Part shown: positions 1-16,174 of the stretch, one piece after another
Position numbering within the stretch: the first letter of the stretch is position 1
How the letters are laid out: every line of letters begins with the position of its first letter
NCBI GenBank assembly: GCA_964359735.1
Contig: CAYHTZ010000003.1
Span: 21,993-85,992 of the forward strand
Source: an uncultured Candidatus Saccharibacteria bacterium
Lineage (GTDB): Bacteria > Patescibacteriota > Andersenbacteria > UBA10190
DNA: 64,000 bases
Direction of reading: 5' to 3'
Program-made: the position numbers and the translations under genes
The notes under the pieces: generated by a model
The model's database searches: none
Told to the model about the DNA's origin: nothing
What the model saw: the letters and a program-made list of their open reading frames with translations, nothing else

Positions 1-225
1 AATGTGGTGCTTTTCCCTGACAGTGGAGCGAGAATTAAGCCGCTCGTAGCTAAGCTCAACGTATTGGAGACACAAAGCATGGAAGCAGGCGTGAAATTCG
101 CGTACCAGCATACCCGGGCGGGAGAGGCTGTCCTTCTCTCTACTGCCTCGCCGAGTTATAGTTTATGGACAAACTTTGAAGAACAAGGCAATGAATTTCA
201 AAAGTACACCCACGCACTCGCCTGA
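1..225 (+). CDS. murD: UDP-N-acetylmuramoylalanine--D-glutamate ligase MurD, C-terminal fragment (gene starts upstream of window)
   Basis: Open frame from window edge; C-terminal '...ASPSYSLWTNFEEQGNEFQ' resembles the MurD C-terminus (SPACASxDQFKNFEERGxxF). Directly upstream of ftsW-murG-murC (dcw order). Confidence 0.55.
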   Translation, partial: NVVLFPDSGARIKPLVAKLNVLETQSMEAGVKFAYQHTRAGEAVLLSTASPSYSLWTNFEEQGNEFQKYTHALA

Positions 226-1306
226 TATTTGGCTACTCCTCACCATCGTGGGCTTGGTGTTCCTTGGATTCATGATGGTGGGGTCGGCTTCAAGCGTGCT
301 CGCTGAGCGCTTTCGGGGAGATGTGTACTTTTTCCTAAAGCACCAAGTGCTCTTCGGCGGCGTGGCGGGAGTAGTTCTCTTTTGCTTAGGATACTTCGTG
401 CCGTACCGCAGCTGGCGACTTTTTGCTTTACCAGCGCTCATTGCTTCCCTAGTGCTCTTAGTGCTCGTATTTGTACCGGGCATCAGCCTACAGTATGGCG
501 GGGCTTCGCGCTGGATAGATATCGGACCGATTACGTTCCAGCCGACCGAACTCACAAAGCTGGCCTTTATTGTTTACTTGGCCGCTTTGCTGGAGCGGAA
601 AGGAGAGGAGATCCGCGACTTTCGCAAAAGTGTACTGCCGTTTGCAGTGATTACAAGTATTTTAACTGTCTTGGTTGCCCTCCAACCCGATTTCGGAACG
701 CTCTTCACTATCACCGCCATTGCGGGGGCGATGGTATTCGTGGCCGGCTTTCGCCTGCGCCACCTCGCACTGCTCATGGCGGGTGCTTTCGCAGTATTCC
801 TGGCCCTGATTACATCCGCGCGCCACGGGATTTCACGCCTCATTACATATCTCCACCCGGAGCTTGACCCGCAAGGAATCGGGTACCAAGTGAATCAGGC
901 GCTCCTAGCGGTGGGCACCGGGGGAATCTGGGGCCTGGGGCTCGGGCGCAGCCGGCAGAAATATCAGTTCTTGCCAGAGCCGGCGGGAGATTCGATATTT
1001 GCCATTATGGCCGAAGAATTGGGGCTGGTGCGTTCAGTGCTGCTGCTCCTGGCATTCGTTTGGATCGGCTGGCGGGGGTACACGATTGCCCGCCTCTCTC
1101 CGGATATGTTCGGGCGGCTCGTCGCAGCCGGCATCACCAGCTGGATTGTTATTCAAGCTTTCGTAAATATCGGGGCGATCTTGGCGATTATGCCGCTCAC
1201 AGGCATCCCTCTTCCCTTTATTAGCTACGGGGGGTCGTCACTCGCGATTTTACTTTTCGCCAGCGGGATTCTCCTGAATGTGAGTAAGTACACGGTGGTA
1301 GAATAA
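176..1306 (+). CDS. ftsW: SEDS family peptidoglycan polymerase FtsW/RodA
   Basis: 376 aa, about 10 TM helices, SEDS-like segments, C-terminal 'MPLTGIPLPFISYGGSSL' motif. Sits between murD and murG as in the dcw cluster. Confidence 0.85.
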   Translation: MKNKAMNFKSTPTHSPDIWLLLTIVGLVFLGFMMVGSASSVLAERFRGDVYFFLKHQVLFGGVAGVVLFCLGYFVPYRSWRLFALPALIASLVLLVLVFVPGISLQYGGASRWIDIGPITFQPTELTKLAFIVYLAALLERKGEEIRDFRKSVLPFAVITSILTVLVALQPDFGTLFTITAIAGAMVFVAGFRLRHLALLMAGAFAVFLALITSARHGISRLITYLHPELDPQGIGYQVNQALLAVGTGGIWGLGLGRSRQKYQFLPEPAGDSIFAIMAEELGLVRSVLLLLAFVWIGWRGYTIARLSPDMFGRLVAAGITSWIVIQAFVNIGAILAIMPLTGIPLPFISYGGSSLAILLFASGILLNVSKYTVVE

Positions 1307-1310
1307 TGGT

Positions 1311-2483
1311 ATGCGAATCGTTTTAACGGGCGGTGGAACGGGCGGACATTTGCTGCCGTTTGAGCCCATTATCGCCAGTTTGCGGATGCAATTCTTAGAA
1401 CAGCAGGCGACTCTGCCCAGTCGGCTTGACCCCGGGCAGCTTGAAATTGTTTTCCTGGGCCCGGTAGATGCGGCTACGCGATCATTTTTCTCCCAGTATG
1501 ATGTGCGAGCAATTCGTATCCCGTCTGGGAAACTGCGGCGCTACGCCTCGGGCCTCACCATTTTCGATTTACTGTGGAGATTACCGCTGGGAGTCGCTCG
1601 CGCGCTCGTCCTGATGTACTTCTTCATGCCTGATGCCGTGATCAGCCTCGGCGGATACGGGAGCGTACCTGGGATGCTGGCCGCAGTCTTCTATCGGATT
1701 CCGATTGTTTTACATGAAATGAATGCGGTGATGGGGCTGGCAAACCGAAGAATGGTTCGGCGAGCCGCGGTGGTAACTTTAGGGTTTGGCACACCTGCCC
1801 AGGTGCTGGGCAAGTATGCGTACAAAGGAGTAGTCACCGGCGACCCCGTACGCGAGGACATCCACCGTTTGACCAAACCGGAAGCGAAGCGCGAATTCCA
1901 CATCGAGGAGGGCGAACACGTGTTGTTGGTCACGGGAGGAAGCCAGGGGGCCAAACAACTCAACGAAGTTCTTCTGCAAATTTTGCCCAGAATCATTCTG
2001 GATACCACCATCATTCACTTAACAGGCAAGGATCACTTCACGGCTGTCTCCACGGTAGCGCAAGAACTCTTGGGGCAATCTTCGCGTAAGGATGCGTATC
2101 TGCCGTTTCCATATCTGACCACGACTATGGCGCATGCCTTAGTGGCCGCTGATTCCATCGTGACCCGGGCGGGTGCTAGTACTCTCTCGGAAATTGCCGC
2201 GCTCAAAACCCCAGCCCTGCTCATTCCTTTGGATAGTGCGGCGCACGATCACCAGCGTGCGAATGCCCAGGTGTTTGAGTCGGCCGGGGCAGCGCTCGTG
2301 CTAGACCCGGCAAATCTCACCCAGAATTTGTTCGAGAATAATGTACGGAGACTCGTCCTTGACGAGGAGGCACGGGAGCACATGGTGAGTAACCTAGCCG
2401 CAATAGACTATCCATCCGCCGCGCGGCAGATCGTGCAGATCGTACTCCAAGTTGCCAGTGGGTTCGCCCCGACAAAACCATGA
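1311..2483 (+). CDS. murG: Undecaprenyldiphospho-muramoylpentapeptide beta-N-acetylglucosaminyltransferase MurG
   Basis: N-terminal 'VLTGGGTGGHLLP' G-loop typical of MurG. 390 aa. Synteny ftsW-murG-murC. Confidence 0.9.
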   Translation: MRIVLTGGGTGGHLLPFEPIIASLRMQFLEQQATLPSRLDPGQLEIVFLGPVDAATRSFFSQYDVRAIRIPSGKLRRYASGLTIFDLLWRLPLGVARALVLMYFFMPDAVISLGGYGSVPGMLAAVFYRIPIVLHEMNAVMGLANRRMVRRAAVVTLGFGTPAQVLGKYAYKGVVTGDPVREDIHRLTKPEAKREFHIEEGEHVLLVTGGSQGAKQLNEVLLQILPRIILDTTIIHLTGKDHFTAVSTVAQELLGQSSRKDAYLPFPYLTTTMAHALVAADSIVTRAGASTLSEIAALKTPALLIPLDSAAHDHQRANAQVFESAGAALVLDPANLTQNLFENNVRRLVLDEEAREHMVSNLAAIDYPSAARQIVQIVLQVASGFAPTKP

Positions 2484-3718
2484 CGCTAGAAGCGGCTAAA
2501 ACAATCTTTATGCTCGGCATTGGAGGGACCGGCATGCGAGGGCTGGCGCGCCTTCTCTCTGCCCACGGGAAAACAGTGGTGGGCTCAGACCAGCAATACG
2601 ACGTGATTAAGAATTGGCCAGATCTCAAAGAGTACGACATTGTGCCTGAAGGAGAAGGCGAACGCTTGCTGAAAAAGGCGGACCTCCTGGTGCACACCGA
2701 CGCGGCCGAAAAAGATCACCCACTGATTAAGGCAGCCCAGCGGGAGAATATTCCCGTCCTGGCGTATCAAGAAGCACTGGGGGACTTTTCCCGCTCACTG
2801 ACAACAGTGGCGGTCACAGGCACTCACGGGAAGTCTTCCACGACGGCTTTTCTGGCTCACATTTTAATTGAGGCAGGAGCCGACCCCAATGTGCTCGTGG
2901 GGGCCCCTATGCCGGCGTGGGGTGGGAGTTCGAGAGTGGGGAAGAGCGATCTGTTTATTGTGGAGGCAGATGAATATAGGGAACACTTTCTGACATTCTC
3001 GCCGGCCCATGCCATCATTGTTTCTGTTGATTTCGACCACCCCGACTACTTCAAATCTCTGGAAGACGTGCAAGCGGCCTATGCGCGATTTAAGGCGCGC
3101 ATCGCGTCCGGAGGCGTTGTACTCACGACGGCGGATGTTCAGCATGAAATTGATGATGTGCCCTCTCCTTTGCCTGGGAGACACATGCAGCACAATGCCG
3201 CACTCGCGGTCAAGATGGCAGAGGTGTTGGGAGTGCCCCGCGAACAGGCAGTCGCAGCCCTCAAAACATTTCCGGGGATAGGTAGAAGATTCGAAAGGTT
3301 GGACAAGATTGGGAAGATGGATCTCTTCACAGACTATGGCCACCACCCTGCCGAGATTAAAGCCACCTTCCTGGCCACTCGAGGAAAGTTTGCCGGCCAG
3401 CGCATACTGACGCTGTTCGAAGCTCATACGTTAGAGCGCTTAAAAACTTTTTTTGACGGATACGTGGAAGCCTTATCAGGGGCAGATGGGGTACTCTTGG
3501 TACCAGTGTTTATACCGGCCGGGCGGGAGCACGAATCAGCGGAGGCAAGAGAGTGGCTCCAGAAATTAGAACGAAAACTTCCGGGTATTGTATGGCGTAT
3601 TGACGATTGGAAGGAGCTCCCAGCTCAACTTACGCAACTCTCGGATGAGTTTGACGTGGCCATTGCGTTCACCGCTGGACTCCTAGACGCAAAGTTGAGG
3701 ACTCTTTCCTTTACTTAA
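2480..3718 (+). CDS. murC: UDP-N-acetylmuramate--L-alanine ligase MurC (Mur ligase family)
   Basis: '[16 protein letters not shown]' MurC N-terminal Rossmann motif. '[12 protein letters not shown]' Mur-ligase P-loop. ATGA start/stop overlap with murG. Confidence 0.8.
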
Positions 3719-3731
3719 TAATATCTATGTA

Positions 3732-3759
3732 CCTCTCCATAGATCGATCTATGGAGAGG
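3732..3759. promoter_or_regulatory. 28-bp perfect palindrome CCTCTCCATAGATCGATCTATGGAGAGG (copy 1 of 3), candidate operator
   Basis: Read directly: perfect reverse-complement symmetry. Lies in the 61-nt gap between murC stop (3718) and the PEP-utilising domain gene (start 3780/3804). The same core recurs at 28416-28441 and 28890-28909 flanking a TrpR/YerC-like regulator gene. Confidence 0.5.
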
Positions 3760-3779
3760 TTGCCCGAAGAGGGCTTTCG

Positions 3780-4835
3780 TTGCATAGTCAGCTAGAGCTC
3801 GTAATGATCAAACTTTCGAAAGTATTCACACGTGAACGCTCACTGTTTTACATGCGCATGTGGAATGACAGCGATCGCATGGGCTTTTCCCGCTGGTTGA
3901 GTACTGATGTTCAGAACAATATGTTTTGGCGAGAGGGGAACATTAACAAGATTTCAGTTTGGTATGACCGAGAGGAATACGACCGGCTAGGAGAGCTAAC
4001 GGCCGAAAAACTCCACGTTGATTCAAAGTTATTTGAAAAAATGGTTCGTGTTTTTCACGATCTCTGGCGCCCGATAGCCCCATATGTGCAAAACGGTAAG
4101 CTCATAACATCTGCCGACGAGCTGGAAAAGTTCTACCAAGATGTGGTTGCGTGGTGGTCGGTGATGGCATTGATGTTTCTTATCCCTAATGTGCCAAGAA
4201 TCCCGAGGAAGCAACGTGAGGCGGCGCTGGCACTGCGCGAGAAGGTAGAACTTTTTTCAGATGCAATGGATCACCTCATGGTGCGCTATGTGGTAGAAGA
4301 ACTACCTCAATATAAAGAATTGGCGTGGGTTATGATGCCAGAAGAAGCTATCAAACTTGGTCGCGATGAGCTCTCTCAGTATGAGCTGGATAAGATCCGT
4401 GGGCGACTCCATGGATTCGCTCTCTTAAATGAAAAGATTTGCAGCAGGCAGGAATTGCCAGGCGCTTTAGCGAAGCAGGGAATACAGTTGGAGCAAGAAC
4501 ATACCACGGCGGGGCTGCATGAAATCAGTGGGACGCCGGCCAGCGCAGGAATCGCGCGAGGCAGGGTGCGCCAAATTTTGCTCAAGGAACAGATACACGA
4601 GCTCCAGAAGGGGGAGATCCTGGTGACAGAAATGACTAATCCTAATTACGTACCAGCCATGAAGAAGGCGTCGGCAATTGTCACTGATGAGGGAGGTATC
4701 ACCTGCCATGCGGCTATTGTCAGCCGGGAGCTGGGCAAGCCGTGCGTCATTGGCACTAAAATTGCAACGCGTGTCCTAAAAAACGGCGATGAAGTTGAGG
4801 TAGATGCAGACAAGGGAACAGTGAAGCTGCTTTGA
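3780..4835 (+). CDS. PEP-utilising enzyme mobile (His-swivel) domain protein, no PEP/pyruvate-binding barrel; N-terminal domain of unclear function
   Basis: C-terminus '[50 protein letters not shown]' is the phosphohistidine swivel domain of PEP synthase/PPDK/rifampin phosphotransferase-type enzymes. Start ambiguous: TTG 3780 or ATG 3804. Paralogue at 21879-23297. Confidence 0.7.
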
Positions 4836-4918
4836 CAAGAGATCGTCTGGCTTTAGGAACGGCTCTGGACAAATAGCCAGCAGTTTTGGTATTGTGTTTC
4901 GTTACAAGAACGTTAGTA

Positions 4919-4947
4919 TTGACGAAATGTCAAAAATACTTAATACT
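4919..4947 (+). promoter_or_regulatory. Candidate sigma70-type promoter (TTGACG, 17-nt spacer, AATACT) with an inverted repeat TTGACgaaatGTCAA overlapping the -35
   Basis: Sequence only. Located 9 nt upstream of the ATG at 4956 in a 120-nt non-coding gap. Confidence 0.3.
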
Positions 4948-4955
4948 CAACCGTT

Positions 4956-5972
4956 ATGGAGCACAGTGTAAATATCAACGACCTCACGGAGAAGCTGTTA
5001 AACAGCCTGGATGCCCGTTCCCGGGACATCGTTATTCGTAGATTTGGGCTTAAATCAGGCCAAGCGGAGACCCTGGAAAGCATCGGTAAGGAGTATGGAA
5101 TTACCCGTGAGAGGGTGCGCCAGATTGAGTCTTACACCAAAAAGACCCTGGCAACTTTACGGGAGCAAATAACCCCTCTGGTAGACTTGCTGGAAAAGAC
5201 CTTTGCGGAACACGGGGGGGTTATGGCCGAACCGCATGTCGTAGAGGTGATAGGCGCCGAACCCCAGGTTGTCCGTTTTTACCTGAATGTCTTGCCGGAA
5301 TACATATATGTCACTCACAAAGAGCTTTTCCACCCGCATTGGCGGCATGAACGGCGAGCAGGAGATGACGCCGATAAAATTGTGGAATGCGCTTGCGAAA
5401 TACTCGTTAAGAAGCAGCTGCCCCTTGAGGAGAGCGAGCTGATTGAAAGCGTAAAGGTACGGCTCGCAGGAGAGGGTGGCGCCTTACCTTCGCCTCACAT
5501 TATTGCGGCTTTTGTCGCCAGCAAACCGTTGGAGCGAACTGTGTTTCAGCAGTGGGGGCTAGCCGAGTGGCCGGAGGTGTCCCCCCGCGGAGTAGGTGAT
5601 AAGGCATACGCGGTGCTGCGTCGGCATGGGAAGCCCGCCCACTTCCGTGAAATCGCGAGCATGATTTCCGAGGCTAAATTTGATACGAAGGCAGCTAACC
5701 CCCAAACCGTGCACAATGAGTTGATTAAAGACGACCGCTTTGTACTGGTGGGGCGGGGGCTCTACGGGTTGAAAGAATGGGGATATGTGCCGGGCACCGT
5801 GGCGGATGTTTTAGAGGCAATCCTGCGCCGTGCCAAGGTTCCCATGACGCGCGAGGAGCTCACCGCCGAAGTGTTGAAACAAAGGATTGTTAAAAAGAAT
5901 ACCATTTTACTCGGCCTTCAGAACCACAAGCGGTTCGTGAGAACAGCTGATCAGCGGTACACATTGCGATGA
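4956..5972 (+). CDS. Sigma-70 region-4-like HTH + C-terminal HARE-HTH domain DNA-binding protein
   Basis: N-terminus 'ETLESIGKEYGITRERVRQIESYTKKTL' matches the sigma-70 region 4.2 signature (xTLEEVGxxFGVTRERIRQIEAKAL). C-terminal 'FVLVGRGLYGLKEWGY' matches the HARE-HTH signature seen in RpoE-delta N-terminal domains. Combination called from motifs only. Confidence 0.65.
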   Translation: MEHSVNINDLTEKLLNSLDARSRDIVIRRFGLKSGQAETLESIGKEYGITRERVRQIESYTKKTLATLREQITPLVDLLEKTFAEHGGVMAEPHVVEVIGAEPQVVRFYLNVLPEYIYVTHKELFHPHWRHERRAGDDADKIVECACEILVKKQLPLEESELIESVKVRLAGEGGALPSPHIIAAFVASKPLERTVFQQWGLAEWPEVSPRGVGDKAYAVLRRHGKPAHFREIASMISEAKFDTKAANPQTVHNELIKDDRFVLVGRGLYGLKEWGYVPGTVADVLEAILRRAKVPMTREELTAEVLKQRIVKKNTILLGLQNHKRFVRTADQRYTLR

Positions 5973-5988
5973 GGAGTAGCGAGAAGCA

Positions 5989-7332
5989 TTGTATACTGGA
6001 ATAATGCTTCTCGTCTCTCAAGGACTTAGCAGCAGCGCACCAAGTACGCTGCTCGTGCCGGAGTTCCTGGATATGGTGGTGACATTGGCGCCAGTGCTCT
6101 TAGGGTTGGCCTGGCTTCTGATAACATTTTTTGCCTTGTGGTTTGCGCGAGAACTGTATGGCTTTATCATTGCCGTGCCCATATATTTGGGGACGATAAA
6201 ATATACTATTCTGCAGGTAGTTTTGCCCGAGGATGCAGAGGAGACGCCGAAGTCGATGGAGGATGCGATCTCACACTGGGGCGGGATACACTACAATCCT
6301 GATGTGAAGGAGAGGTACTTTGATGGCTTTGTGGATTGGTGGTACAGCCTTGAGGTGCAATGCACTCCCGAGAAGGTGCGTTACTTTCTCTTTATCCCCA
6401 CTATATTCCGGCCTTTCTTTGAAGGCGTCATCTACGGCCAGTACCCCGAAGCAGAAATTCAAGAAGCCGAGGACTACACGCTGAACTATGATTACAGAAG
6501 AGTCCGGCAGGACTTCGAAGTGTACGGCACCGATATGATTTTGTCGCTGGACGATGTGTACCCGATTCGCTCGTATACTCAATACGGCGACCCCTTGTCT
6601 CCTACGGAAACATTCATTGATCCGCACCAATCCATGATTGAGGCTTACTCAAATGTTAACCCGGGCGAGGAATACTGGTTCCAAGTAATTGTTTGGCCGG
6701 CGAGTCCGGCTAAGAAAAAATCTTGGGTGGCGAAGGGGGAAAAAGAAATTGCTCAGATTACCGGGCGGGCAAAGGAGGCCGGCCCCGGCTTCTTTAAACA
6801 ACTGAGAAAGTTTTTTACGCGCATCCCTCAGGAGGTTGTGAACGTGCTGCGCGGCCGGCACGCCTCCGCCGGGGAGGAAGGAGAAGAGCAACTCGATGTC
6901 CACTTCTTCGATCCCGTGGAAACCATAAAAATGGAATCGATTTTGCGGAAAATTTCTCGAGATGTGTACCGCTGCATGGTGCGCCTGATATACATTGCGC
7001 CCAAGGGGAAGCTGCATAAGCCTAACATCGGCCGCGCCATTGGCCCTTTCAAGCAGTTTTGGGGCGCGAACGCATTTAGGCCTGATCCAAAAACAAAGTC
7101 GAATGGGGTGGATTACATCATGAAGGAGCGGCGCCGGCTTTACCGTGAACGCACTATCTTGGCCGAGTACCAGTGGCGGGACCCTTTGGGCATGGGACGC
7201 GGACCATATATGCTGACGGCGGAGGAAGTAGCCACGGTGTACCATTTCCCCACCAAATGGATACAGGCGCCTGTTTTAGAGCGCGCGAAAGCGGGAACCT
7301 ACTCGGCACCGGAGGAGGTACCGTATGTCTGA
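5989..7332 (+). CDS. Membrane protein (2-3 N-terminal TM helices + large soluble domain), partner of the downstream T4CP-like ATPase
   Basis: Hydrophobic N-terminus 'VVTLAPVLLGLAWLLITFFALWFA...IIAVPIYLG', then 360-aa hydrophilic domain. Stop overlaps the start of the next gene (ATGTCTGA), indicating translational coupling. Confidence 0.55.
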   Translation: MYTGIMLLVSQGLSSSAPSTLLVPEFLDMVVTLAPVLLGLAWLLITFFALWFARELYGFIIAVPIYLGTIKYTILQVVLPEDAEETPKSMEDAISHWGGIHYNPDVKERYFDGFVDWWYSLEVQCTPEKVRYFLFIPTIFRPFFEGVIYGQYPEAEIQEAEDYTLNYDYRRVRQDFEVYGTDMILSLDDVYPIRSYTQYGDPLSPTETFIDPHQSMIEAYSNVNPGEEYWFQVIVWPASPAKKKSWVAKGEKEIAQITGRAKEAGPGFFKQLRKFFTRIPQEVVNVLRGRHASAGEEGEEQLDVHFFDPVETIKMESILRKISRDVYRCMVRLIYIAPKGKLHKPNIGRAIGPFKQFWGANAFRPDPKTKSNGVDYIMKERRRLYRERTILAEYQWRDPLGMGRGPYMLTAEEVATVYHFPTKWIQAPVLERAKAGTYSAPEEVPYV

Positions 7333-9019
7333 AACACCTAAGATCCAAGAAATAACCGTGTTGGGGCAGACGAACTTCCGCGGGCAGGCGCGGGTGTTCG
7401 GCATCTACGAAGAAGACCGGCGGGGCCATGTCTATGTGTTGGGAAAGACAGGCATGGGAAAGACCACGCTGCTGCGGAATATGCTGGTGCAAGATATCCA
7501 AGGCGGCAAGGCGGTGGCACTCGTTGACCCGCATGGAGACCTAGCTAGTGAGCTGCTGGCTGCCGTGCCCTCGCGCCGATTGAACGATGTCATCTACTTC
7601 GACCCATCGGACGTGGCGTACCCCGTTGGCTTCAATGTGTTAGAAACTCCCAAGCCGGAGTATAAGTATCTCGTAGCCAGCGGCCTCATTGGCACGCTTA
7701 AGAAAATTTGGGCGGATTCGTGGGGGCCGCGGTTAGAATACATCTTGAGGAATACCATTTTAGCACTGCTTGATTACCCCGGCGCTACTATGCTCGGGAT
7801 ATCTCGTATGCTCACTGACAAAAAATACCGCGAACGGGTAGTGCGCAAAATTCAAGACCCGGTGGTGAGATCATTTTGGGTAAATGAGTTTGCTAACTAC
7901 AACGAGCGTTTTGCTAACGAAGCTATCTCTCCCATCCAGAACAAGGTAGGGCAATTTCTCTCCAGCGCCGTGATCCGCAATATTGTCTCGCAGCCGAAAA
8001 GTACCATTGACATCCATGACATTATGGACAACGGTAAGGTCTTGATTATGAATTTGTCGAAGGGGAAGATCGGGGAAGACAACTCGGCGCTCTTGGGAGC
8101 CATGATGATCACTCGCATCCAGCTGGCTGCCATGGACCGGGCGTATGTGCCGGAGAGCGAGCGGACAGATTTCTTTCTCTACGTGGATGAATTTCAAAAC
8201 TTCGCGACGGAATCGTTCGCCGGTATTCTTTCCGAGGCGCGCAAATACCGCCTGAATCTGGTGATTGCCCATCAATACATCACCCAGATGGAAGAACCTG
8301 TGCGCGATGCTGTCTTTGGAAACGTGGGCACCATCGTAGCCTATCGAGTGGGCGCCTTTGATGCCGAGTATTTGGAGAAGGAATTTGCACCATACTTTGT
8401 TCAATCGGACTTGGTAAACCTGGACCGATACTCAGCCTACATCCGCCTAATGATCCATGGCGTTACCAGCAAGCCATTCAGCATGAAGAACATTCCGCCG
8501 ACGCCGCAGTCGGAAGGAAATGCGGAGACGGTGCTCCGCGTCTCGCGCGAACGTTATGCCCGGCCGCGCGATATCGTGGAGGATAAAATCCTGCGGTGGA
8601 GCAGCAACACTGAGCCGAAACCGGTAAAGCGCACCCCCACGGCAGCCCCCCTTGCTCAAAAGCCCGTGCCGACGCAGCCCGCCCAGCCAGCCGCGCCGGC
8701 AAAACTTACTAAGGCTGTGCCGGCACCATTCCCGGCGATGTTCCAAACGCCGGTGGGAATGGCCGAGAGCGAGCCGCCAGAACCGGGGCCACTGATCACT
8801 GACCTCGCGAGCACACTCGCCGAAGAAGACCGCAAGCGCGGGCAGCAAAAAACTCAAGACCGAATTGGCAAGAAAATGTATGACACGTTGTGCGACCGCT
8901 GCGGGAAGGCGACGCAAGTACCTTTTCAGCCCACTCCGGGGAGGCCAGTGTATTGCCCAGAGTGCTTTGCGATTGTGAAAGCCGGGATTGAAGACCAGGA
9001 TTCGTCGATGCAGGGCTAA
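7325..9019 (+). CDS. VirD4/TraG/TraD-like (type IV coupling protein-like) P-loop ATPase with C-terminal zinc ribbon
   Basis: Walker A 'VLGKTGMGKTTLL'. Walker B-like 'LYVDEFQNFA' followed by 'LNLVIAHQYITQM' (the T4CP/FtsK-HerA clade pattern LDEF...Q...Q). P/A/Q-rich linker. C-terminal 'CDRCGK...YCPEC' CxxC-x17-CxxC. Confidence 0.65.
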   Translation: MSETPKIQEITVLGQTNFRGQARVFGIYEEDRRGHVYVLGKTGMGKTTLLRNMLVQDIQGGKAVALVDPHGDLASELLAAVPSRRLNDVIYFDPSDVAYPVGFNVLETPKPEYKYLVASGLIGTLKKIWADSWGPRLEYILRNTILALLDYPGATMLGISRMLTDKKYRERVVRKIQDPVVRSFWVNEFANYNERFANEAISPIQNKVGQFLSSAVIRNIVSQPKSTIDIHDIMDNGKVLIMNLSKGKIGEDNSALLGAMMITRIQLAAMDRAYVPESERTDFFLYVDEFQNFATESFAGILSEARKYRLNLVIAHQYITQMEEPVRDAVFGNVGTIVAYRVGAFDAEYLEKEFAPYFVQSDLVNLDRYSAYIRLMIHGVTSKPFSMKNIPPTPQSEGNAETVLRVSRERYARPRDIVEDKILRWSSNTEPKPVKRTPTAAPLAQKPVPTQPAQPAAPAKLTKAVPAPFPAMFQTPVGMAESEPPEPGPLITDLASTLAEEDRKRGQQKTQDRIGKKMYDTLCDRCGKATQVPFQPTPGRPVYCPECFAIVKAGIEDQDSSMQG

Positions 9020-9038
9020 ATGTGGTATAGTCAAGAGG

Positions 9039-9728
9039 ATGCGCGACATGGCGAGGGAAACAGAGAAAGTACCCATCGACCGACCATTTAATTTTAAAGA
9101 GGATGCCAACTGGCGGATTTTTCGCATTATGGCGGAGTTCGTCGAAGGCTTCGAGTTTTTAGCAGATCTGCGCAAAGAGGTGACGTTTTTTGGATCAGCA
9201 CGTTTCTCTGAGGAGTCCCGCTGGTACAAAGAGGCGCTGAAATTAGGGCGCCTGCTGGCCAAAGCTGGATTCACGGTGATCACGGGCGGGGGTCCGGGCA
9301 TTATGGAGGCCGGCAATCGAGGCGCCTATGAAGGCGGGGGGGAGTCGGTCGGTCTCGACATCGAATTACCAGCTGAACAGCGGCGCAACGCGTACGTGAA
9401 ACGCGGGATTGGATTCCACTACTTTTTCACACGCAAAGTTATGCTGAGAGCTTCTGCTCAAGCATATATCTTCTTCCCCGGAGGCTTTGGAACCGTGGAC
9501 GAATTTAGTGAGACAATTACGCTTATGCAGACTCAGAAAATGGAGCGCGTACCTGTTATCTGCATGGGCCGCGAGTTCTGGGAACCATTCCATGAGTGGG
9601 CGCGAACAATCATGCTCAGTAAGTTTGAAACCATCTCGCCTGAAGATCTTGACCTCTATACTATTGTGGATTCGGCAGAAGAAGTATTCGAGCTTATCAA
9701 GGATTCGCCAGAAAGAAAGTACTTTTGA
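9039..9728 (+). CDS. LOG family protein (TIGR00730; cytokinin riboside 5'-monophosphate phosphoribohydrolase-like Rossmann protein)
   Basis: 'VTFFGSARFSEES...VITGGGPGIMEAGNRGAYEGGGESVGL...FFPGGFGTVDEFSE' is the LOG/YvdD signature. Start set at ATG 9039 (AAGAGG just upstream); ATG 9048 is an alternative. The ORF-track start 8988 would overlap the previous gene. Confidence 0.85.
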   Translation: MRDMARETEKVPIDRPFNFKEDANWRIFRIMAEFVEGFEFLADLRKEVTFFGSARFSEESRWYKEALKLGRLLAKAGFTVITGGGPGIMEAGNRGAYEGGGESVGLDIELPAEQRRNAYVKRGIGFHYFFTRKVMLRASAQAYIFFPGGFGTVDEFSETITLMQTQKMERVPVICMGREFWEPFHEWARTIMLSKFETISPEDLDLYTIVDSAEEVFELIKDSPERKYF

Positions 9729-9773
9729 TCCACCAGTTTGAATCCAGTCAAGGGTCAGTGCTAGGCTTCTTGC

Positions 9774-11651
9774 ATGCGAAACATTAGTACAAATGAGCTG
9801 CGGGAACTCTACCAGCAATTCTTTGAGGGCAAAGGCCATACGCGGATTCCCAGCGCTCCGCTGGTGCCGGAGAACGACCCGACCACCCTTTTTACAGGAT
9901 CGGGAATGCAACCGCTCGTTCCGTACCTTTTAGGAGAGCCACACCCGCAAGGGAAGCGTCTCGTGAATTCGCAGAAATCATTTCGAGCCGAAGATATCGA
10001 GGAAATTGGTGACAACCGCCACACGACGTTTTTTGAAATGTTGGGCAACTGGTCACTCGGCGACTACTTCAAAGAAGAGCAGCTGTCGTGGATATTTGAG
10101 TTTTTGACTGAGGTGGTGGAGTTGGATCCCAGAAATTTATACGTAACTGTTTTTGCTGGCGATAAGAAAGCAAACATTCCCCGAGATACGGAATCCGTGG
10201 AAATTTGGAAGCGCTTGTTTCAAGAGAAGGGAATAGAAGCTCGTGACAGTGAGCTTCTCACTCCCCAGCAAGGAGGGCGGGAAGGCATGCAAGGAGGAAG
10301 AATTTTTTATTTCGGCGCTAGCAAAAATTGGTGGAGCAGAGCCGGACTCCCAGAGAACATGCCTCCCGGCGAGCCGGGCGGACCTGACTCCGAAATTTTC
10401 TATGATTTTGGAGCAGAGCATAATAGCGCTTTTGGCGAGCATTGCCATCCCAACTGCGATTGTGGCCGATTTATGGAAATTGGGAACTCTGTTTTCATGG
10501 AGTTTGTGAAACAGGCGGATGGCAGTTTTGTCTCTCTTCCTCAGAAAAACGTTGACTTCGGCGGCGGACTGGAGCGTATGGTGGCGGCGGCCCAACACAC
10601 TCCAGATATTTTTTCCGCGGTTGATCCATTGCGAGCGATCATTGAGCACATTGAGAACACGACTCACACCACCTATCAGAGCTCCGCGAACAAGGCTTCC
10701 TACCGGATCATGGCGGACCATATGCGTGCGGTGACGCTCCTTATCGGTGATGGCGTAGCTCCCTCGAACACGGATCGAGGATACGTGGTGCGTCGGTTGA
10801 TTCGACGCGCCGCGTACCACGCCCAGAAGCTAGCGGCTGAGGATGCTATCATCCAGCGGCTGGCCAACGTGGTCGCCGACCAATATGCCTCTGCCTACCC
10901 AGATGTAAAAAAACAATCGCGTCAGGTGGGGCACGCTATTCGGGAGGAAGTGCAAAAGTTTGGCGTGAGCTTGCGGCGGGCGCTAGTCAAGCTGGAGACC
11001 ATCTTAAACAAAGAATCGGGAATTTCTGGAGCAGAGATCTTCGAACTCAACACTGCCCATGGACTGCCACTCGATGCGATTTGGGATCGTCTCAAAGAGA
11101 GGAATATTCCCATCGGCTCAGGTGTTCAGGAGGACGTTCGGCGTAGGATTGCCGACCACCGGGAGAAATCCCGCACAGCGGGGACAGGGAAGTTTAAAGG
11201 AGGACTGGCTGACCACTCGGAAAAATCTGTCCACTACCACACGGCCACGCATTTGCTGCACCAGGCGCTGCGGGACGTGCTGGGAGAACATGTCTTTCAA
11301 AAGGGTAGCAATATTACGCCCGAGAGGCTCCGATTCGACTTTTCGCACACGGACAAAATGACACCCGACCAAATTCAGAAAATAGAAAACCTGGTGAACC
11401 AGAAAATCCAGGAGGATTTGCTCGTCCTCCGCGAGGAGACGACAGTCGCGGAAGCGAAGCAGAAGGGGGCGCTGGGCTTATTTGAAGAAAAGTATGCCGA
11501 CCGTGTGAGTGTATACTCTATGGGGAATTACTCCTGCGAAATTTGCGGGGGTCCGCATGTGGCACACACGGGGGAGTTGGGTCATTTCAAGATTACGAAG
11601 GAAGAGTCTGCCGGGGCTGGTGTACGCCGGATAAAAGCCGTATTAGAGTAG
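9774..11651 (+). CDS. alaS: Alanine--tRNA ligase (short form, 625 aa; catalytic + editing domains, C-terminal C-Ala domain apparently absent)
   Basis: N-terminal 'FFEGKGHTRIPSAPLVPENDPTTLFTGSGMQP...FEMLGNWSLGDYFKEE'. Editing-domain 'HTATHLLHQALRDVLG...GGPHVAHTGELG'. Confidence 0.9.
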   Translation: MRNISTNELRELYQQFFEGKGHTRIPSAPLVPENDPTTLFTGSGMQPLVPYLLGEPHPQGKRLVNSQKSFRAEDIEEIGDNRHTTFFEMLGNWSLGDYFKEEQLSWIFEFLTEVVELDPRNLYVTVFAGDKKANIPRDTESVEIWKRLFQEKGIEARDSELLTPQQGGREGMQGGRIFYFGASKNWWSRAGLPENMPPGEPGGPDSEIFYDFGAEHNSAFGEHCHPNCDCGRFMEIGNSVFMEFVKQADGSFVSLPQKNVDFGGGLERMVAAAQHTPDIFSAVDPLRAIIEHIENTTHTTYQSSANKASYRIMADHMRAVTLLIGDGVAPSNTDRGYVVRRLIRRAAYHAQKLAAEDAIIQRLANVVADQYASAYPDVKKQSRQVGHAIREEVQKFGVSLRRALVKLETILNKESGISGAEIFELNTAHGLPLDAIWDRLKERNIPIGSGVQEDVRRRIADHREKSRTAGTGKFKGGLADHSEKSVHYHTATHLLHQALRDVLGEHVFQKGSNITPERLRFDFSHTDKMTPDQIQKIENLVNQKIQEDLLVLREETTVAEAKQKGALGLFEEKYADRVSVYSMGNYSCEICGGPHVAHTGELGHFKITKEESAGAGVRRIKAVLE

Positions 11652-11655
11652 ATAT

Positions 11656-13020
11656 ATGCGGGATATTCGACCGGTACCTAAAAAACCTCCACTCGGAGGC
11701 ATGCCGCTGCCCAGCGAAGATGAGCTCTATGAAGTATCGCAATCGGCGAAGCAGCGGGGAAGCGAGCGAGCTTCAGTGCCAAGTAAAGCGCTGCGCGGGT
11801 CGCAAGTGCCGGTAACGAATGTGCACGTACCCGCTGAACCATCCCGGCCCCTGTTTGCGAAGGCACCACTCAGGGAGAAGAAACCTAAAACTCGCATCCG
11901 GCTGGGGAGCAAGGAGCGAGCGGCGGTATTAGTCCTCCTTTTAATTGTCGTGGTGGTGGTTTTGCTCAGTGCGGCTATTTTTTTGCCGCGAGCAGACGTT
12001 AAATTGATTTTACGAACGGCACCTCTTTTAGTGGATGAAGACCTGATTGTCCGCGCGGCGGCGGACGGCCCGAATGTTATTCCCGGAGCAACTTTTTTCC
12101 GACAGGTGTCAGTAGAAGGAACTGTCCCGGTCGAAAGTACCGAAATCGTGGGTACGAAGGCGACGGGCACGGTGCAGATTGTAAATCGCACTACTCAAGA
12201 GCAAAAAATCCGCGACAGAAGCCGGCTCATGACGAAAGAAGGGGTACTTTTTTACATGACACGGCATGTCATAGTTGCGCCGGACTCAAGAGCCAGCGTG
12301 GAAGTGGAGGCGGCCGAGGCGGGAGAAGTGGGGAATATTGCGCCGCAGCGGCTTAACTTTGCCGCACTCGACGCCTCGGCTCAGTCGGTAGTGTATGCCG
12401 AAGCAACCGCGGCCATCTCCGGCGGCAAGGGCGAGGAAGTGCGTGTGGTGCGTGAAGAAGATATTGAACGAGCCAGGATAGCCGCCAAAGAAGCCGCCCG
12501 CGCCAAGGTCCAAGAAGAAATTCAAAAAGAACTGCCCAGCGGCTGGGTGCTCCTGGAAGAGAGTTGGACAGCTGATTACGACTCTTTCAAGACAGACGGT
12601 GAGGTAGGCAGCCGGCAACCACAAATTGCTTACTCAGGCAATGCCACGGTACGCGTCTTAGGCTATGAATCAGCCAGGTTAGAAGAGCGTCTCCGCGCTG
12701 CGTTGGAAGAGAGGATCGACCAGGATTACGCGCTCTTCCCGGGGCCAATTTCCTACTCGAAAACAGTGAAAAGCGTGGATTGGGAGAAGGGAGAAGGGGT
12801 AATCGCGACCCGCGTCACCCACACTACGATTCCTGATTTTTCTTTAGAAACTCTCAAGGGGAAAATTGCGCGGCGTGGCGCAGATGAGGCGAAAACGTAC
12901 CTCGAAGGGCTTCCCGGGGTGCAGCGGGTAGAGCTGGCTTTTTCACCCTTCTGGGTGCGTTCGATCCCACGGATTGAAAAGCGAATTAACCTGGAAGTGA
13001 TCCCGGAGCGCCAGCCCTAA
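11656..13020 (+). CDS. Hypothetical membrane-anchored protein (basic cytoplasmic N-tail, single TM, large extracytoplasmic domain)
   Basis: ORF of 454 aa with TM 'AAVLVLLLIVVVVVLLSAAIFL'. No recognised domain. Confidence 0.5.
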   Translation: MRDIRPVPKKPPLGGMPLPSEDELYEVSQSAKQRGSERASVPSKALRGSQVPVTNVHVPAEPSRPLFAKAPLREKKPKTRIRLGSKERAAVLVLLLIVVVVVLLSAAIFLPRADVKLILRTAPLLVDEDLIVRAAADGPNVIPGATFFRQVSVEGTVPVESTEIVGTKATGTVQIVNRTTQEQKIRDRSRLMTKEGVLFYMTRHVIVAPDSRASVEVEAAEAGEVGNIAPQRLNFAALDASAQSVVYAEATAAISGGKGEEVRVVREEDIERARIAAKEAARAKVQEEIQKELPSGWVLLEESWTADYDSFKTDGEVGSRQPQIAYSGNATVRVLGYESARLEERLRAALEERIDQDYALFPGPISYSKTVKSVDWEKGEGVIATRVTHTTIPDFSLETLKGKIARRGADEAKTYLEGLPGVQRVELAFSPFWVRSIPRIEKRINLEVIPERQP

Positions 13021-13130
13021 GGGAATTTGACAGCCCGGAGGCTTCTCCTTATAGTGCTTCTATCTGCATTACAAGCTTTTGGGTTGAAGCAGAGGAAAGA
13101 GCTTATGCTCTTCGACTCCGCTCAGAGTAA

Positions 13131-13160
13131 GCCCGCTTGAAGTGCGGGTAATTTAATTTT
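13131..13160 (+). terminator. Weak hairpin (GCCCGC-ttgaagt-GCGGGT) followed by a T-rich tract; possible terminator after the 11656-13020 gene
   Basis: Seen in sequence. 6-bp stem including one G-U, then 'aatttaatttt'. Stability is modest. Confidence 0.3.
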
Positions 13161-13171
13161 AAGTACCCAGT

Positions 13172-13390
13172 CTGCCTAAAAGCGATTTCGTAGAGATTGA
13201 GGGGGTAATCACCGATACTCTTCCCAGCACGCAATTCCGCGTCAAGCTGGAAACAGGACAAGAAGTGATTGCCCATCTTTCCGGTAAGATGCGCCTTCAT
13301 AGAATCCGGGTTCTGCCTGGGGACCGCGTACGGGTCGCTTTCTCGCCGTACGATCTTACTAAAGGGAGAATTGTCAGCAGACTAGAGTGA
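13172..13390 (+). CDS. infA: Translation initiation factor IF-1 (no canonical start codon; CTG at 13172 proposed)
   Basis: In-frame translation '(L)[71 protein letters not shown]' is a full-length IF-1 (S1-like OB fold). Absent from the ORF track because there is no ATG/GTG/TTG between the upstream TAA (13160-13162) and the conserved N-terminus. Confidence 0.8.
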
Positions 13391-13392
13391 TT

Positions 13393-13506
13393 ATGAAAGT
13401 GCAAGCTTCCGTTAAAAGACGTTGTACGAAGTGCAAAATTGTCCGCCGCAGCGGCAAGTTGTACGTGATTTGCGACAATCCTAAACATAAGCAAAGACAG
13501 GGATAG
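13393..13506 (+). CDS. rpmJ: 50S ribosomal protein L36
   Basis: '[37 protein letters not shown]', 37 aa, C4-type zinc-binding L36 signature. Not in the ORF track (below length cut-off). Confidence 0.92.
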
Positions 13507-13508
13507 CT

Positions 13509-13901
13509 ATGCCAGTCCGTATTTCAGGAATTAACCTCCCCGACCAGAAGCGCATCGAAATTGCGCTCATGAGTATTTACGGTATCGGCCGAAAATTATC
13601 TGGCGCAATTTTACAGGAACTGGCGATTGACCCGAATGCTAAAACGCGCGATCTCACTTCTACCGAAGAACACAAGCTGCGCGAATACATCGAGAAAAAC
13701 CTCAAAGTTGAAGGAGACCTCAAGCGGGAGGTCGCCATGAATGTGAAGCACTTAAAAGATATCGGCAGCTTGCGCGGCACGCGGCACGCGAAACACCTAC
13801 CCGTACGCGGGCAGCGTACCCGCACGAATTCCCGCACGGTACGCGGCAACGTCAGGCGAACCGCCGGCAGCGGCCGTAAGGCATCGGCAGAAAAGACATA
13901 A
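13509..13901 (+). CDS. rpsM: 30S ribosomal protein S13
   Basis: 'RISGINLPDQKRIEIALMSIYGIGRKLSGAIL', C-terminal basic tail. Conserved rpmJ-rpsM-rpsK-rpsD-rpoA-rplQ order. Confidence 0.95.
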   Translation: MPVRISGINLPDQKRIEIALMSIYGIGRKLSGAILQELAIDPNAKTRDLTSTEEHKLREYIEKNLKVEGDLKREVAMNVKHLKDIGSLRGTRHAKHLPVRGQRTRTNSRTVRGNVRRTAGSGRKASAEKT

Positions 13902-13902
13902 T

Positions 13903-14292
13903 ATGGCAGAACCGAAGACAAAGAAAAAGGCAAAGGCACGACGCAAAGTTCGTGAAGGGAAGGTATTTATCCAATCCACGTATAACAATACGATTGTGAC
14001 GGTAACCGATACCTCTGGAAACGTGTTGGTCTCAAGCAGCGCCGGCCGGGTGGGATTCTCGGGGGCAAGAAAGGCAACGCCCTTTGCCGCACAGCAGGTA
14101 GTAACCAATATCGTGGAGCAGCTTCAGCCCATTGGACTGGAAGAAGTGCGTGTGTATGTGAAAGGCATCGGTTCGGCTCGCGAAGCGGCTGTGCGCAGCC
14201 TCTCCGGGGCCGGCCTCACTATTGCTTCAATTCGGGATATTACGCCGATTCCTCACAACGGGGTACGGCCTAAGAAACGACGGAGGGTATAA
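13903..14292 (+). CDS. rpsK: 30S ribosomal protein S11
   Basis: 'GKVFIQSTYNNTIVTVTDTSGNVLVSSSAGRVGFSGARKATPFAAQ'. Confidence 0.95.
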   Translation: MAEPKTKKKAKARRKVREGKVFIQSTYNNTIVTVTDTSGNVLVSSSAGRVGFSGARKATPFAAQQVVTNIVEQLQPIGLEEVRVYVKGIGSAREAAVRSLSGAGLTIASIRDITPIPHNGVRPKKRRRV

Positions 14293-14293
14293 T

Positions 14294-14812
14294 ATGCCGC
14301 TTCCCACTCAACAACACCAACGGCGGCGCCCCACCAGCAGATACGCACAGCAAATGCTGGAAAAGCAATCCTTAAAAGAAATTTACGGGCTGAGAGAAGA
14401 GCAGCTCAAGACATACTACCGCCAGGCGCTCTCCGCTCGCGGGGAAACCGGCCCATACATCATTCGGATGCTGGAGAGGCGGTTGGATAACGCTGTCTTT
14501 CGCTCGGGGATTGCACAAACCCGCCCACAAGCGCGGCAAATGGTGACACACGGGTTGTTCTTGGTAAATGGGCGCGGGGCGGATATCCCTTCCCGTCGGC
14601 TTACAGTAGGAGATGTGATCGCCATTAAAGAAGGGAAGCGCAAGAAAGCATTATTCGATAATTTCGAAAAGCGCATGCAGGGCGCGCGCCTCCCGAACTG
14701 GCTGGCGCTCGATGTAAAAGGGTACGGCTTCAAGGTAGTCGGCGAGCCGGCTCCAGAGGAAGCGGCTATCGGCGTGGATATTCGCGCCGTCGTGGAATTC
14801 TTCGCACGTTAA
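14294..14812 (+). CDS. rpsD: 30S ribosomal protein S4 (N-terminal zinc-finger region absent)
   Basis: 'LKEIYGLREEQLKTYYRQALSARGETGPYIIRMLERRLDNAVFRSGIAQTRPQARQMVTHGLFLVNGRGADIPS'. Start at ATG 14294 with GGAGGG 6 nt upstream. Confidence 0.9.
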   Translation: MPLPTQQHQRRRPTSRYAQQMLEKQSLKEIYGLREEQLKTYYRQALSARGETGPYIIRMLERRLDNAVFRSGIAQTRPQARQMVTHGLFLVNGRGADIPSRRLTVGDVIAIKEGKRKKALFDNFEKRMQGARLPNWLALDVKGYGFKVVGEPAPEEAAIGVDIRAVVEFFAR

Positions 14813-14838
14813 TTTTTAATTTCTTAACACAAGCTCTT

Positions 14839-15816: not shown

Positions 15817-16174
15817 ACATGGCAATCGAATACTGAGCCGAGTGGCGGCCGACCGCCGACAGCTTCTCTCAAACTTAGCCGGAGCGGTACTTCGCCATGG
15901 TTCAATTGTGACCAGCGAAGCGAAGGGAAAGGAGCTCAAGAAGTTCCTCGAACCGCTGATTACCAAGGCCCGAAAGGGGACCAGTCTGCACGTCAGACGG
16001 AAACTCTTGAGCAGTCTCTTTCATCAAGAAGACGTAGAGCGGCTTTTTGCAGTGGCTCGTGCCAATGCGGAGAGAGCAGGGGGGTATTTGAGACTGACCC
16101 GCCTGCCGGCGCGGCGCGGGGATGACGGGCAAGAGGTACGAGTTGACATCATTGATACCGAAGCGAAAGAATAA
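15806..16174 (+). CDS. rplQ: 50S ribosomal protein L17
   Basis: 'MKHKHGNRILSRVAADRRQLLSNLAGAVLRHGSIVTSEAKGKELKKFLEPLITKAR'. ATG 15806 with GGAGG upstream. Overlaps rpoA end by 11 nt. Confidence 0.9.
   Translation: MKHKHGNRILSRVAADRRQLLSNLAGAVLRHGSIVTSEAKGKELKKFLEPLITKARKGTSLHVRRKLLSSLFHQEDVERLFAVARANAERAGGYLRLTRLPARRGDDGQEVRVDIIDTEAKE

Follow-up and report, generated by a model that had tools for sequence, protein, structure and literature searches.

A Patescibacteria protein family that joins a sigma-70 region 4 domain to four HARE-type winged helices: a candidate essential promoter-associated factor

Introduction

Why would a bacterium carry the part of a sigma factor that reads the −35 element on a protein that has none of the other sigma regions? 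Sigma region 4.2 contacts the −35 hexamer through residues of its recognition helix, and a gene at positions 4956-5972 of a 64-kb stretch of the Patescibacteria contig CAYHTZ010000003.1 (64,000 nucleotides, hereafter the window) encodes such a region 4 (r4) at the start of a protein of 338 amino acids (aa), in which it is followed by winged helices of the HARE-HTH type. An earlier note, made by reading the DNA sequence, had singled out this r4-HARE gene for its combination of domains, for its position upstream of a module resembling type IV coupling proteins (T4CPs) and for a promoter with an inverted repeat. Here, we describe the protein, its family and its gene neighbourhood, and we weigh what it may do.

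The Patescibacteria (Candidate Phyla Radiation, CPR) account for a substantial part of bacterial diversity, and no function has been assigned to the majority of the core essential genes that are enriched in this lineage, the r4-HARE family among them. The domains of the family place it in transcription or DNA handling. In the literature, we found no functional description of it, papers that pair HARE-HTH with sigma or delta treating other proteins, and no paper that links a HARE-type HTH protein to the CPR. The family is thus an uncharacterised, lineage-specific arrangement of known domains, which has already been catalogued and scored essential. We assign a probability of about 0.45, somewhat short of even odds, to the reading that the protein is an essential general factor, basic and DNA-binding, that binds promoters at the −35 element or associates with RNA polymerase (RNAP).

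Results

A region 4 domain of the primary sigma type followed by four winged helices

The open reading frame (ORF) opens at the earliest possible start codon, and because an in-frame TAA lies 12 nt upstream (4941-4943) no N-terminal extension is possible. The identical protein at NCBI is named 'HTH domain-containing protein [Patescibacteria group bacterium]'. Pfam places Sigma70_r4 (PF04545) at aa 14-61 (48.1 bits, gathering score 24.1, E 8e-13) and HARE-HTH (PF05066) at aa 216-275 (54.1 bits, gathering score 25.9, E 2e-14); the motifs from which the two domains had been recognised by eye, GITRERVRQIE and VLVGRGLYGLKEWGY, occupy aa 48-58 and aa 263-277. Sigma region 2 (PF04542) and region 3 (PF04539) have no Pfam match in the protein, whose r4 begins 13 aa after the start. 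An AlphaFold model built on 38 relatives (mean pLDDT 92, pTM 0.81) consists of the helical r4 and four successive helix-helix-helix-strand-strand units, WH1 to WH4 (Table 1). In comparisons of profiles made from 146 sequences, the four units are homologous repeats (hhalign probabilities of 91-96%, E 1e-6 to 1e-8), and none of them is related to r4. The modelled protein has a single r4 with four HARE-type winged helices in tandem behind it. The combination of r4 and HARE-HTH in the absence of sigma regions 1 to 3, as proposed in the earlier note, is therefore supported by Pfam, NCBIfam and the structural model, with the amendment that four winged helices are present where one had been seen.

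Table 1. Features of the r4-HARE locus, in window coordinates.
Feature	Position	Strand	Basis
Alternative promoter-like site TGGACA-18-TATTGT, with extended −10 TG	4866..4895	+	consensus scan
Promoter-like site TTGACG-17-AATACT	4919..4947	+	consensus scan, 9/12 matches
Short inverted repeat TTGAC-gaaat-GTCAA (two −35-like half sites)	4919..4933	.	read from the sequence
Gene for r4 plus four HARE-type winged helices	4956..5972	+	ORF; Pfam and NCBIfam matches; AlphaFold model
Sigma-70 region 4 domain, aa 7-67; recognition helix TRERVRQIE, aa 50-58	4974..5156	+	PF04545, Foldseek, PDB profile matches
WH1, aa 69-131; variable, slightly acidic	5160..5348	+	model; hhalign against WH2/WH4, 91-93%
WH2, aa 138-202; variable	5367..5561	+	model; hhalign against WH1/WH3/WH4, 91-96%
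WH3, the Pfam HARE-HTH, aa 213-275; like the delta N-terminal domain, basic, highly conserved	5592..5780	+	PF05066, TIGR04567
WH4, aa 282-337; basic, conserved	5799..5966	+	model; hhalign against WH2 95.7%, WH3 91.3%
DUF8128 (PF26449) membrane protein, 447 aa; probable start ATG 6004	5989..7332	+	homologues carry PF26449; model; Foldseek
VirD4/TraD/TrwB-like P-loop ATPase, 564 aa	7325..9019	+	PF10412, PF01935, PF02534; TraD and CD1115 models
C-terminal treble-clef zinc finger CxxC-x17-CxxC of the ATPase	8870..8971	+	PF23477, E 7e-16; TIGR04272, 58 bits against 36

The N-terminal domain is close to that of primary sigma factors. It superposes on r4 of SigA and RpoS (Foldseek, 42-48% identity, root-mean-square deviation 0.6-1.9 Å), and a profile search of PDB sequences returned sigma region 4 of RpoS, SigA, HrdB and RpoD (E 1e-15 to 1e-10). 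Its recognition helix TRERVRQIE differs from TRERIRQIE of E. coli sigma70 solely by V for I. Since the window itself has no sigma factor, a second Patescibacteria locus, L028, served for comparison within one genome; there, the recognition helix of r4 is identical to the r4.2 helix of the genome's own sigma factor. The NCBIfam models for RpoD, RpoS and MzaA match the r4 end only, at 25-56 bits against cut-offs of 240-800, and the sigma superfamily model TIGR02937 reaches 30.9 bits, below its cut-off of 42.9. Because regions 2 and 3 are absent and every sigma model stays below its cut-off, the profile comparisons identify the 338-aa protein as something other than a sigma factor, in keeping with the earlier description of it as not a classical one. 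In the absence of regions 1.1, 2 and 3, it is unable to melt a −10 element or to bind the β′ clamp helices.

The helix directly after r4 (aa 69-85, window 5160-5210) is amphipathic, with hydrophobic residues at 72, 75, 76, 79, 82 and 83 and the pattern LLxxxF in close relatives. The top Foldseek match of the whole model was a chimera of SigA r4 and the β-flap tip, aligned over 106 columns that cover this helix. On the model, the helix might occupy the flap-binding groove of r4 as an intramolecular mimic of the flap tip; from the alignment with the PDB sequence 1ku3 (residues 15-83), it can equally be the normal C-terminal helix of a sigma r4. Beyond r4, Foldseek matched only generic tandem winged-helix arrays of the PDB (the SelB C-terminus, RPC62 and Dcc1).

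WH3 passes the NCBIfam model of RNAP delta (TIGR04567), scoring 46.2 bits over aa 215-275 where the cut-off is 42, which bears out the likeness to the N-terminal domain of RpoE-delta that had been noticed before; the domain is internal here and not N-terminal. When the C-terminal half alone was compared with PDB sequences, the best match was again RNAP delta (8x6g_E), at a marginal E of 0.24, with a common RF-x-VG-x-LYGL-x-W wing. After WH3, a folded basic winged helix with a net charge of +7 stands in place of an acidic tail; the C-terminal region of delta has a net charge of −47 (PMC7749165). Because it lacks the acidic tail and has an additional r4, three further repeats and a basic charge, the protein is not a delta subunit.

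Conservation concentrates in the recognition helix, WH3 and WH4

An exhaustive search of 50%-identity representatives yielded a family of 590 clusters at E <= 1e-30, nearly all with proteins of 330-400 aa. The best 120 relatives, mostly from Candidatus Andersenbacteria, all carry PF04545 and PF05066 at 95-100% query coverage. On contigs from one genome per species we found 66 full-length orthologous loci at 31-54% identity, in Saccharibacteria, Parcubacteria/Paceibacteria, Doudna-, Uhr-, Kaiser-, Niyogi-, Falkow-, Buchanan-, Gracili- and Peribacteria. When 145 representatives are compared, three parts stand out as conserved, namely the r4 recognition helix (ITRERVRQIE, at least 90%), WH3, which follows the consensus QTVHNELIKDxRFVLVGRGxYxLxEWGYxPGTV with about 90% conservation, and WH4, with WH1 and WH2 variable; in 38 close relatives the recognition helix is invariant. 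The charge follows the same division, with median net values of +4 for r4, +5 for WH3, +5 for WH4 and +12 for the whole protein, and WH1 and WH2 neutral or acidic.

Fusions of family members to other proteins were found, with SecF (P0193), sigma70 (P0206) and DnaA-C (P0240). We rejected these proteins as Rosetta-stone partners, since the SecF fusion reflects the adjacency of secF and the other two are single cases. In P0206 (800 aa), a complete sigma70 with r2, r3 and r4 is fused in frame to an r4-HARE protein, the r4 helix of which has drifted to TRQRIQQIK; across the 66 loci, rpoD is not a recurrent neighbour of the r4-HARE gene.

A further relative is encoded in a Dehalococcoidia metagenome-assembled genome (L071:9458-11599). 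This protein of 713 aa has an internal sigma r4 with ITRERVRQIE, a HARE-HTH and a C-terminal zinc ribbon; the combination of r4 and HARE-HTH therefore occurs outside Patescibacteria too. Its gene adjoins a GHKL-type ATPase-like ORF (7459-8982), with no DUF8128, and this context looks like a conflict system or a mobile element. Bacterial HARE-HTH proteins that mix features of sigma factors and of the α subunit are reportedly mentioned by Aravind and Iyer (2012), and the present architecture may be among them.

The counterpart in Southlakia epibionticum is essential and its downstream neighbour is not

The family has a counterpart in S. epibionticum ML1, SEML1_0294, a gene of 1050 bp whose product carries PF04545 at aa 27-72 and PF05066 at aa 225-283 and was divided into a tri-helical domain and three winged ones (Wang et al. 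2023, PMC10633639). The adjoining gene on the same strand, SEML1_0293, has 2766 bp and a TrwB domain at residues 402-719 (PMC10633639), a layout equal to that of a fused protein of DUF8128 and ATPase at locus L050, described below. In the transposon sequencing of this species, SEML1_0294 belongs to a core, Patescibacteria-enriched family and is scored essential (ES) at each of the three time points, its insertions dropping from 24 in the input DNA to 1, 1 and 2 after selection, which is comparable to rpoD and dnaG, and the main text of that study does not discuss the gene (PMC10633639). SEML1_0293 was scored non-essential (NE); its insertions numbered 82 in the input and, following selection, 87, 120 and 110, while its normalised reads went from 5817 to 1372, an approximately 4-fold loss (PMC10633639). 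Because this downstream neighbour is dispensable, the essentiality of SEML1_0294 is not a polar effect, and because the neighbour is the fused DUF8128-ATPase, the essential role is not exerted through the translocase. The role that makes the gene essential is independent of DUF8128 and the ATPase, and the protein is not merely a translocase accessory.

DUF8128 is the tight partner of the gene, and the ATPase adjoins in half of the lineages

In the window, the r4-HARE gene is followed after 16 nt by a TTG (5989) and after 31 nt by the probable ATG (6004) of a gene for a DUF8128 membrane protein, the stop of which is overlapped by 8 nt by the start of a VirD4-like ATPase gene; no terminator-like site was found between the three genes. 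We examined this order in orthologous loci with sufficient downstream sequence (n=58 for DUF8128, n=46 for the ATPase). DUF8128 lies downstream on the same strand in 52/58 loci, in 50/58 of them within 900 nt, and the ATPase lies within 5 kb downstream in 23/46, with yceG/mltG and mnmA after DUF8128 in the other loci. Conversely, starting from DUF8128 homologues of 24-28% identity, the upstream gene was again one with Sigma70_r4 and HARE-HTH, and some loci of Gracilibacteria and Peribacteria keep the HTH gene without DUF8128. The linkage to a downstream T4CP-like module that had been proposed from the window is thus real and recurs in orthologues, except that its tight member is DUF8128 and not the ATPase.

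The DUF8128 model (pLDDT 82) has a long N-terminal transmembrane (TM) helix. Its nine best Foldseek matches in the PDB are all TrwK/VirB4 of the R388 type IV secretion system (T4SS), with E 3e-5 to 5e-4, a probability of ~1.0 and alignments of ~440 columns, but with TM-scores of 0.30-0.34 and 7-10% identity; the NCBIfam VirB4 model scores far below its cut-off. Because the TM-scores are only ~0.3, the modelled likeness to the N-terminal domain of VirB4 is a lead at the level of the fold and not a proof. We found no paper that mentions DUF8128. For the ATPase, Pfam scores are 32.8 bits against 20.5 for PF10412 and 20.3 against 20.1 for PF02534, with PF01935 also matched; profile matches include TrwB, TraD, VirD4 and HerA, and the PDB entry of TrwB, 1e9r, matches weakly (E 2e-4). 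The protein has no TM segment of its own, its P-loop region matched by AAA and TrwB models starting at about residue 30, and the TM helix is found on the separate DUF8128 protein. Because the two are fused in L050 (1015 aa) and P0360, DUF8128 and the ATPase form one functional unit; SEML1_0293 is a third such fusion, and the N-terminal part of the L050 protein is homologous to the DUF8128 protein of the window (E 1e-21). P0360 (775 aa, L084:177-2504) lies on a short contig with unannotated ORFs and a zf_Tbcl protein, where no r4-HARE gene is visible in the only 176 nt upstream. Neither T4SS nor relaxase genes were found near the ATPase in the window and the orthologous loci, where its neighbours are housekeeping genes. 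In Patescibacteria at large, 5,713 VirD4-like homologues were counted in 2,918 genomes, only 148 of them near virB4, and were considered possibly exapted (PMC12102498).

Upstream, secF precedes the r4-HARE gene in at least 19 loci (L002, L004-L007, L011-L014, L016-L018, L020, L024, L033, L036, L048, L049 and L054), at a distance of ~100-1200 nt from the match with an outlier of ~4.5 kb in L016. This adjacency explains the SecF fusion P0193, and it gives a conserved order of secF, r4-HARE and DUF8128, with the ATPase next in some loci. The wider context is one of housekeeping genes (ftsW-murG-murC, secF, yceG, mnmA, alaS and ribosomal genes), not a mobile element or defence island.

The remaining observations concern the neighbours in the window. 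Positions 1-16000 hold ftsW, murG, murC, the r4-HARE cluster, a 625-aa alanyl-tRNA synthetase and rpsM-rpsK-rpsD-rpoA-rplQ, named from translations and tblastn labels and mostly without profile confirmation, and read as a segment of a Patescibacteria (Andersenbacteria-like) chromosome. The zinc finger of the ATPase is preceded by a Pro/Ala-rich linker, and the next gene, of the LOG / TIGR00730 family (8988-9728, +), shares 32 nt with the end of the ATPase gene, an overlap suggestive of a single transcription unit. In the product of 3780-4835 (+, 351 aa), the sole domain recognised is a PEP-utilizers mobile (phosphohistidine) domain in the C-terminal part (aa 276-346), the N-terminal 250 aa being without a Pfam match; the protein resembles a swivel domain of the PEP synthase / rifampicin phosphotransferase type that stands alone.

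A promoter-like site precedes the gene in most orthologues, in some lineages with paired −35-like boxes

The r4-HARE gene almost always has its own canonical promoter: TTGAC occurs upstream in 62/67 orthologous cases, usually with a good −10, and some ten of them have the box at 32-42 nt from the ATG, a spacing that implies mRNAs with no leader or almost none. The site TTGACG-17-AATACT of the window would likewise give such an mRNA with the ATG at 4956. Our scan found three promoter-like sites, against 4.5 ± 2.1 expected in shuffled sequence, and thus no excess. The promoter-like site and the inverted repeat over its −35 box, both described in the earlier note, do exist, but the repeat is not a conserved trait: its arms are only 5 bp, it went unreported by the repeat finder at the thresholds used, and TTGAC-N5-GTCAA occurs in only 5/67 orthologous upstream regions, which rules out a conserved operator over the −35 box. 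A second −35-like box, either in tandem at 11-12 bp or inverted, was found in 12/62 promoter-bearing upstream regions against 7/161 controls (odds ratio 5.3, one-sided Fisher p = 8e-4). This enrichment is compatible with binding of the protein, in some lineages, to −35-like boxes in front of its own gene; it is a weak lead rather than a defining feature of the family. In L029, L030, L040 and L044, two tandem TTGAC boxes 11-12 bp apart, or one helical turn, precede a single −10, ~80-100 nt upstream of the r4-HARE start.

Discussion

We propose that r4 binds TTGACA-like (−35) boxes, and that the conserved basic modules WH3 and WH4 hold the adjacent DNA, dock on RNAP in the manner of delta's HARE-HTH, or do both, while the variable WH1 and WH2 would serve as a spacer or as a surface for partners. 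On this view, the protein would be a promoter-occupancy factor or a general transcription factor associated with promoters, not an initiation sigma, and might act on its own promoter as well. Presumably co-transcribed with the membrane-anchored VirB4/VirD4-like machine formed by DUF8128 and the ATPase, it may also target that machine to DNA.

Several points weigh against this proposal. The DNA specificity is one that we infer solely from the identity of the recognition helix, and a reader of every −35 box would compete with sigma-A everywhere, an encounter whose productive outcome is unexplained. The HARE-HTH in the N-terminal domain of delta binds RNAP, at the β′ shelf/jaw, and not DNA (PMC7749165). 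A purely transcriptional role leaves the very strong synteny with DUF8128 unexplained, and orthology to SEML1_0294 rests on matching architecture, length and synteny. Finally, paired boxes are confined to ~18% of loci, and the particular inverted repeat to 5/67.

The strongest competitor, although we consider it doubtful, is a subunit-like accessory factor of RNAP that places r4 on the β-flap tip and the delta-like HARE-HTH on the β′ shelf/jaw and modulates initiation or recycling without sequence-specific DNA binding of its own. That r4 retains the sigma 4.1-4.2 core in full, with its RFGL and TLE-IG motifs, fits this, as do the passing of the delta model by WH3 with delta as the best PDB sequence match, the rpoD-like essentiality of the counterpart and the in-frame fusion to a complete sigma70 in P0206. 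The DPAM parsing by Wang et al., moreover, puts the equivalent domain of SEML1_0294 in ECOD e7f75L1, from 7f75, among SigA-containing complexes. However, the acidic tail on which delta function depends is absent, and the conserved basic modules point to contact with nucleic acid; a compact model (pTM 0.81) sits poorly with two docking sites, the flap tip and the shelf/jaw, that are found at opposite ends of RNAP; and the residues that read the −35 element would have no cause to stay invariant if DNA were not read. The fusion to sigma, for its part, is a single case without recurrent adjacency of rpoD.

The synteny lends appeal to another reading, in which the protein is the DNA-recognition or adaptor subunit of the DUF8128 and ATPase machine, that is, the separate winged-helix reader of a membrane-anchored motor of the FtsK/HerA superfamily that is split over genes. 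Such a role is suggested by the order of r4-HARE and DUF8128 in 52/58 loci, which holds when approached from remote DUF8128 homologues, by the fusions in L050, P0360 and SEML1_0293, by the overlapping downstream starts without an intergenic terminator, and by the abundance of orphan VirD4-like T4CPs suspected of exaptation in Patescibacteria (PMC12102498). Against it, the HTH gene is essential and the fused DUF8128-ATPase, which retained 82-120 insertions with a ~4-fold loss of reads, is not; half of the lineages have yceG and mnmA in the place of an adjacent ATPase, and the HTH gene persists without DUF8128 in some loci of Gracilibacteria and Peribacteria. A role as translocase adaptor cannot be the essential function, and we regard this explanation as unlikely.

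A further reading, which we likewise hold to be improbable, is a Patescibacteria-specific essential component of initiation: a second −35-reading head of the sigma-A type with delta-like winged helices that sits on −35 boxes or the β-flap, instead of or alongside r4 of sigma-A, and physically couples promoters or RNAP to the membrane VirB4/VirD4-like translocase. If true, RNAP would have an accessory subunit of a new kind, and a type IV secretion ATPase would have been put to a novel use.

Very little speaks for a local autoregulator or repressor that acts only on its own operon by binding half sites of the −35 type in its promoter. In its favour are the inverted repeat that covers the −35 box in the window and the enrichment of paired boxes upstream of orthologues (p = 8e-4), but paired boxes are absent in ~80% of loci, the regulator of a dispensable operon should not be essential, and a local repressor would not typically have three DNA-binding modules so extremely conserved throughout a superphylum. 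A component of anti-phage defence or a sensor of DNA modification, as many HARE-HTH proteins and MzaA are, is barely credible: the top NCBIfam and PADLOC matches of the r4 part are to MzaA, the ATPase matches PADLOC mad8 (E 6e-17) and the Dehalococcoidia relative sits beside a GHKL-type ATPase, yet these matches are to generic domains only (33.8 bits for MzaA in PADLOC, 55.8 against a cut-off of 800 in NCBIfam), and in a housekeeping context, with a core family, an essential counterpart and no MZA/MADS partner genes nearby (PADLOC), we rejected membership in MZA or MADS.

We therefore favour the general promoter-associated factor. The isolated −35-reading part of a sigma factor, together with an indispensability of the counterpart like that of rpoD in the one species tested, suggests an additional and so far unrecognised component of promoter recognition or RNAP organisation. 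Its pairing with a split VirB4/VirD4-like ATPase bears on the role of the many orphan homologues of coupling proteins in Patescibacteria. The genetic tractability of S. epibionticum makes these hypotheses directly testable.

Comparison with known systems sets the protein between several of them. With r4 of the primary (group 1/2) sigma-70 factors RpoD, SigA and RpoS it shares the fold, 42-53% identity, the helix TRER(V/I)RQIE and the core motifs RFGL and TLE-IG; unlike these factors, it lacks regions 1.1, 2 and 3 and continues with four winged helices after r4, where sigma ends. The stand-alone Sigma70_r4 proteins of phages and MzaA also use r4 outside a complete sigma factor, but none has a tail of four winged helices. 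We considered a phage origin and rejected it, no viral model having matched the whole protein at E <= 0.001.

The delta subunit (RpoE) of Bacillota, with its N-terminal HARE-HTH, resembles the protein at the level of one domain, through the delta model and the wing motif of WH3. It is set apart by the acidic disordered C-terminal region that is missing here, by the r4 and the four repeats that it does not have, and by the basic charge and the essential counterpart of the present protein; delta is dispensable in B. subtilis. Other HARE-HTH (PF05066) proteins, namely those associated with restriction and modification and ASXL/HB1, belong to the same family of winged-helix domains, whereas they occur in the context of nucleases, methylases or chromatin enzymes and the present genes in a housekeeping context without modification genes.

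As to the downstream pair, the DUF8128 model aligns with structures of VirB4 (TrwK), at low TM-scores, and the ATPase matches profiles of TrwB, TraD and VirD4, but in contrast to the T4SS proteins the pair is split, or fused as DUF8128 followed by a VirD4-like nucleotide-binding domain, carries a zinc finger and has no T4SS or relaxase genes nearby. The operon as a whole recalls FtsK-γ, SpoIIIE-γ and Streptomyces TraB. FtsK-γ reads KOPS and Streptomyces TraB reads clt repeats; here, the parts lie on separate polypeptides, and the reader is essential while the motor is not. In both cases, nevertheless, a membrane anchor, a P-loop motor of the FtsK/HerA superfamily and winged-helix DNA-binding modules are found together.

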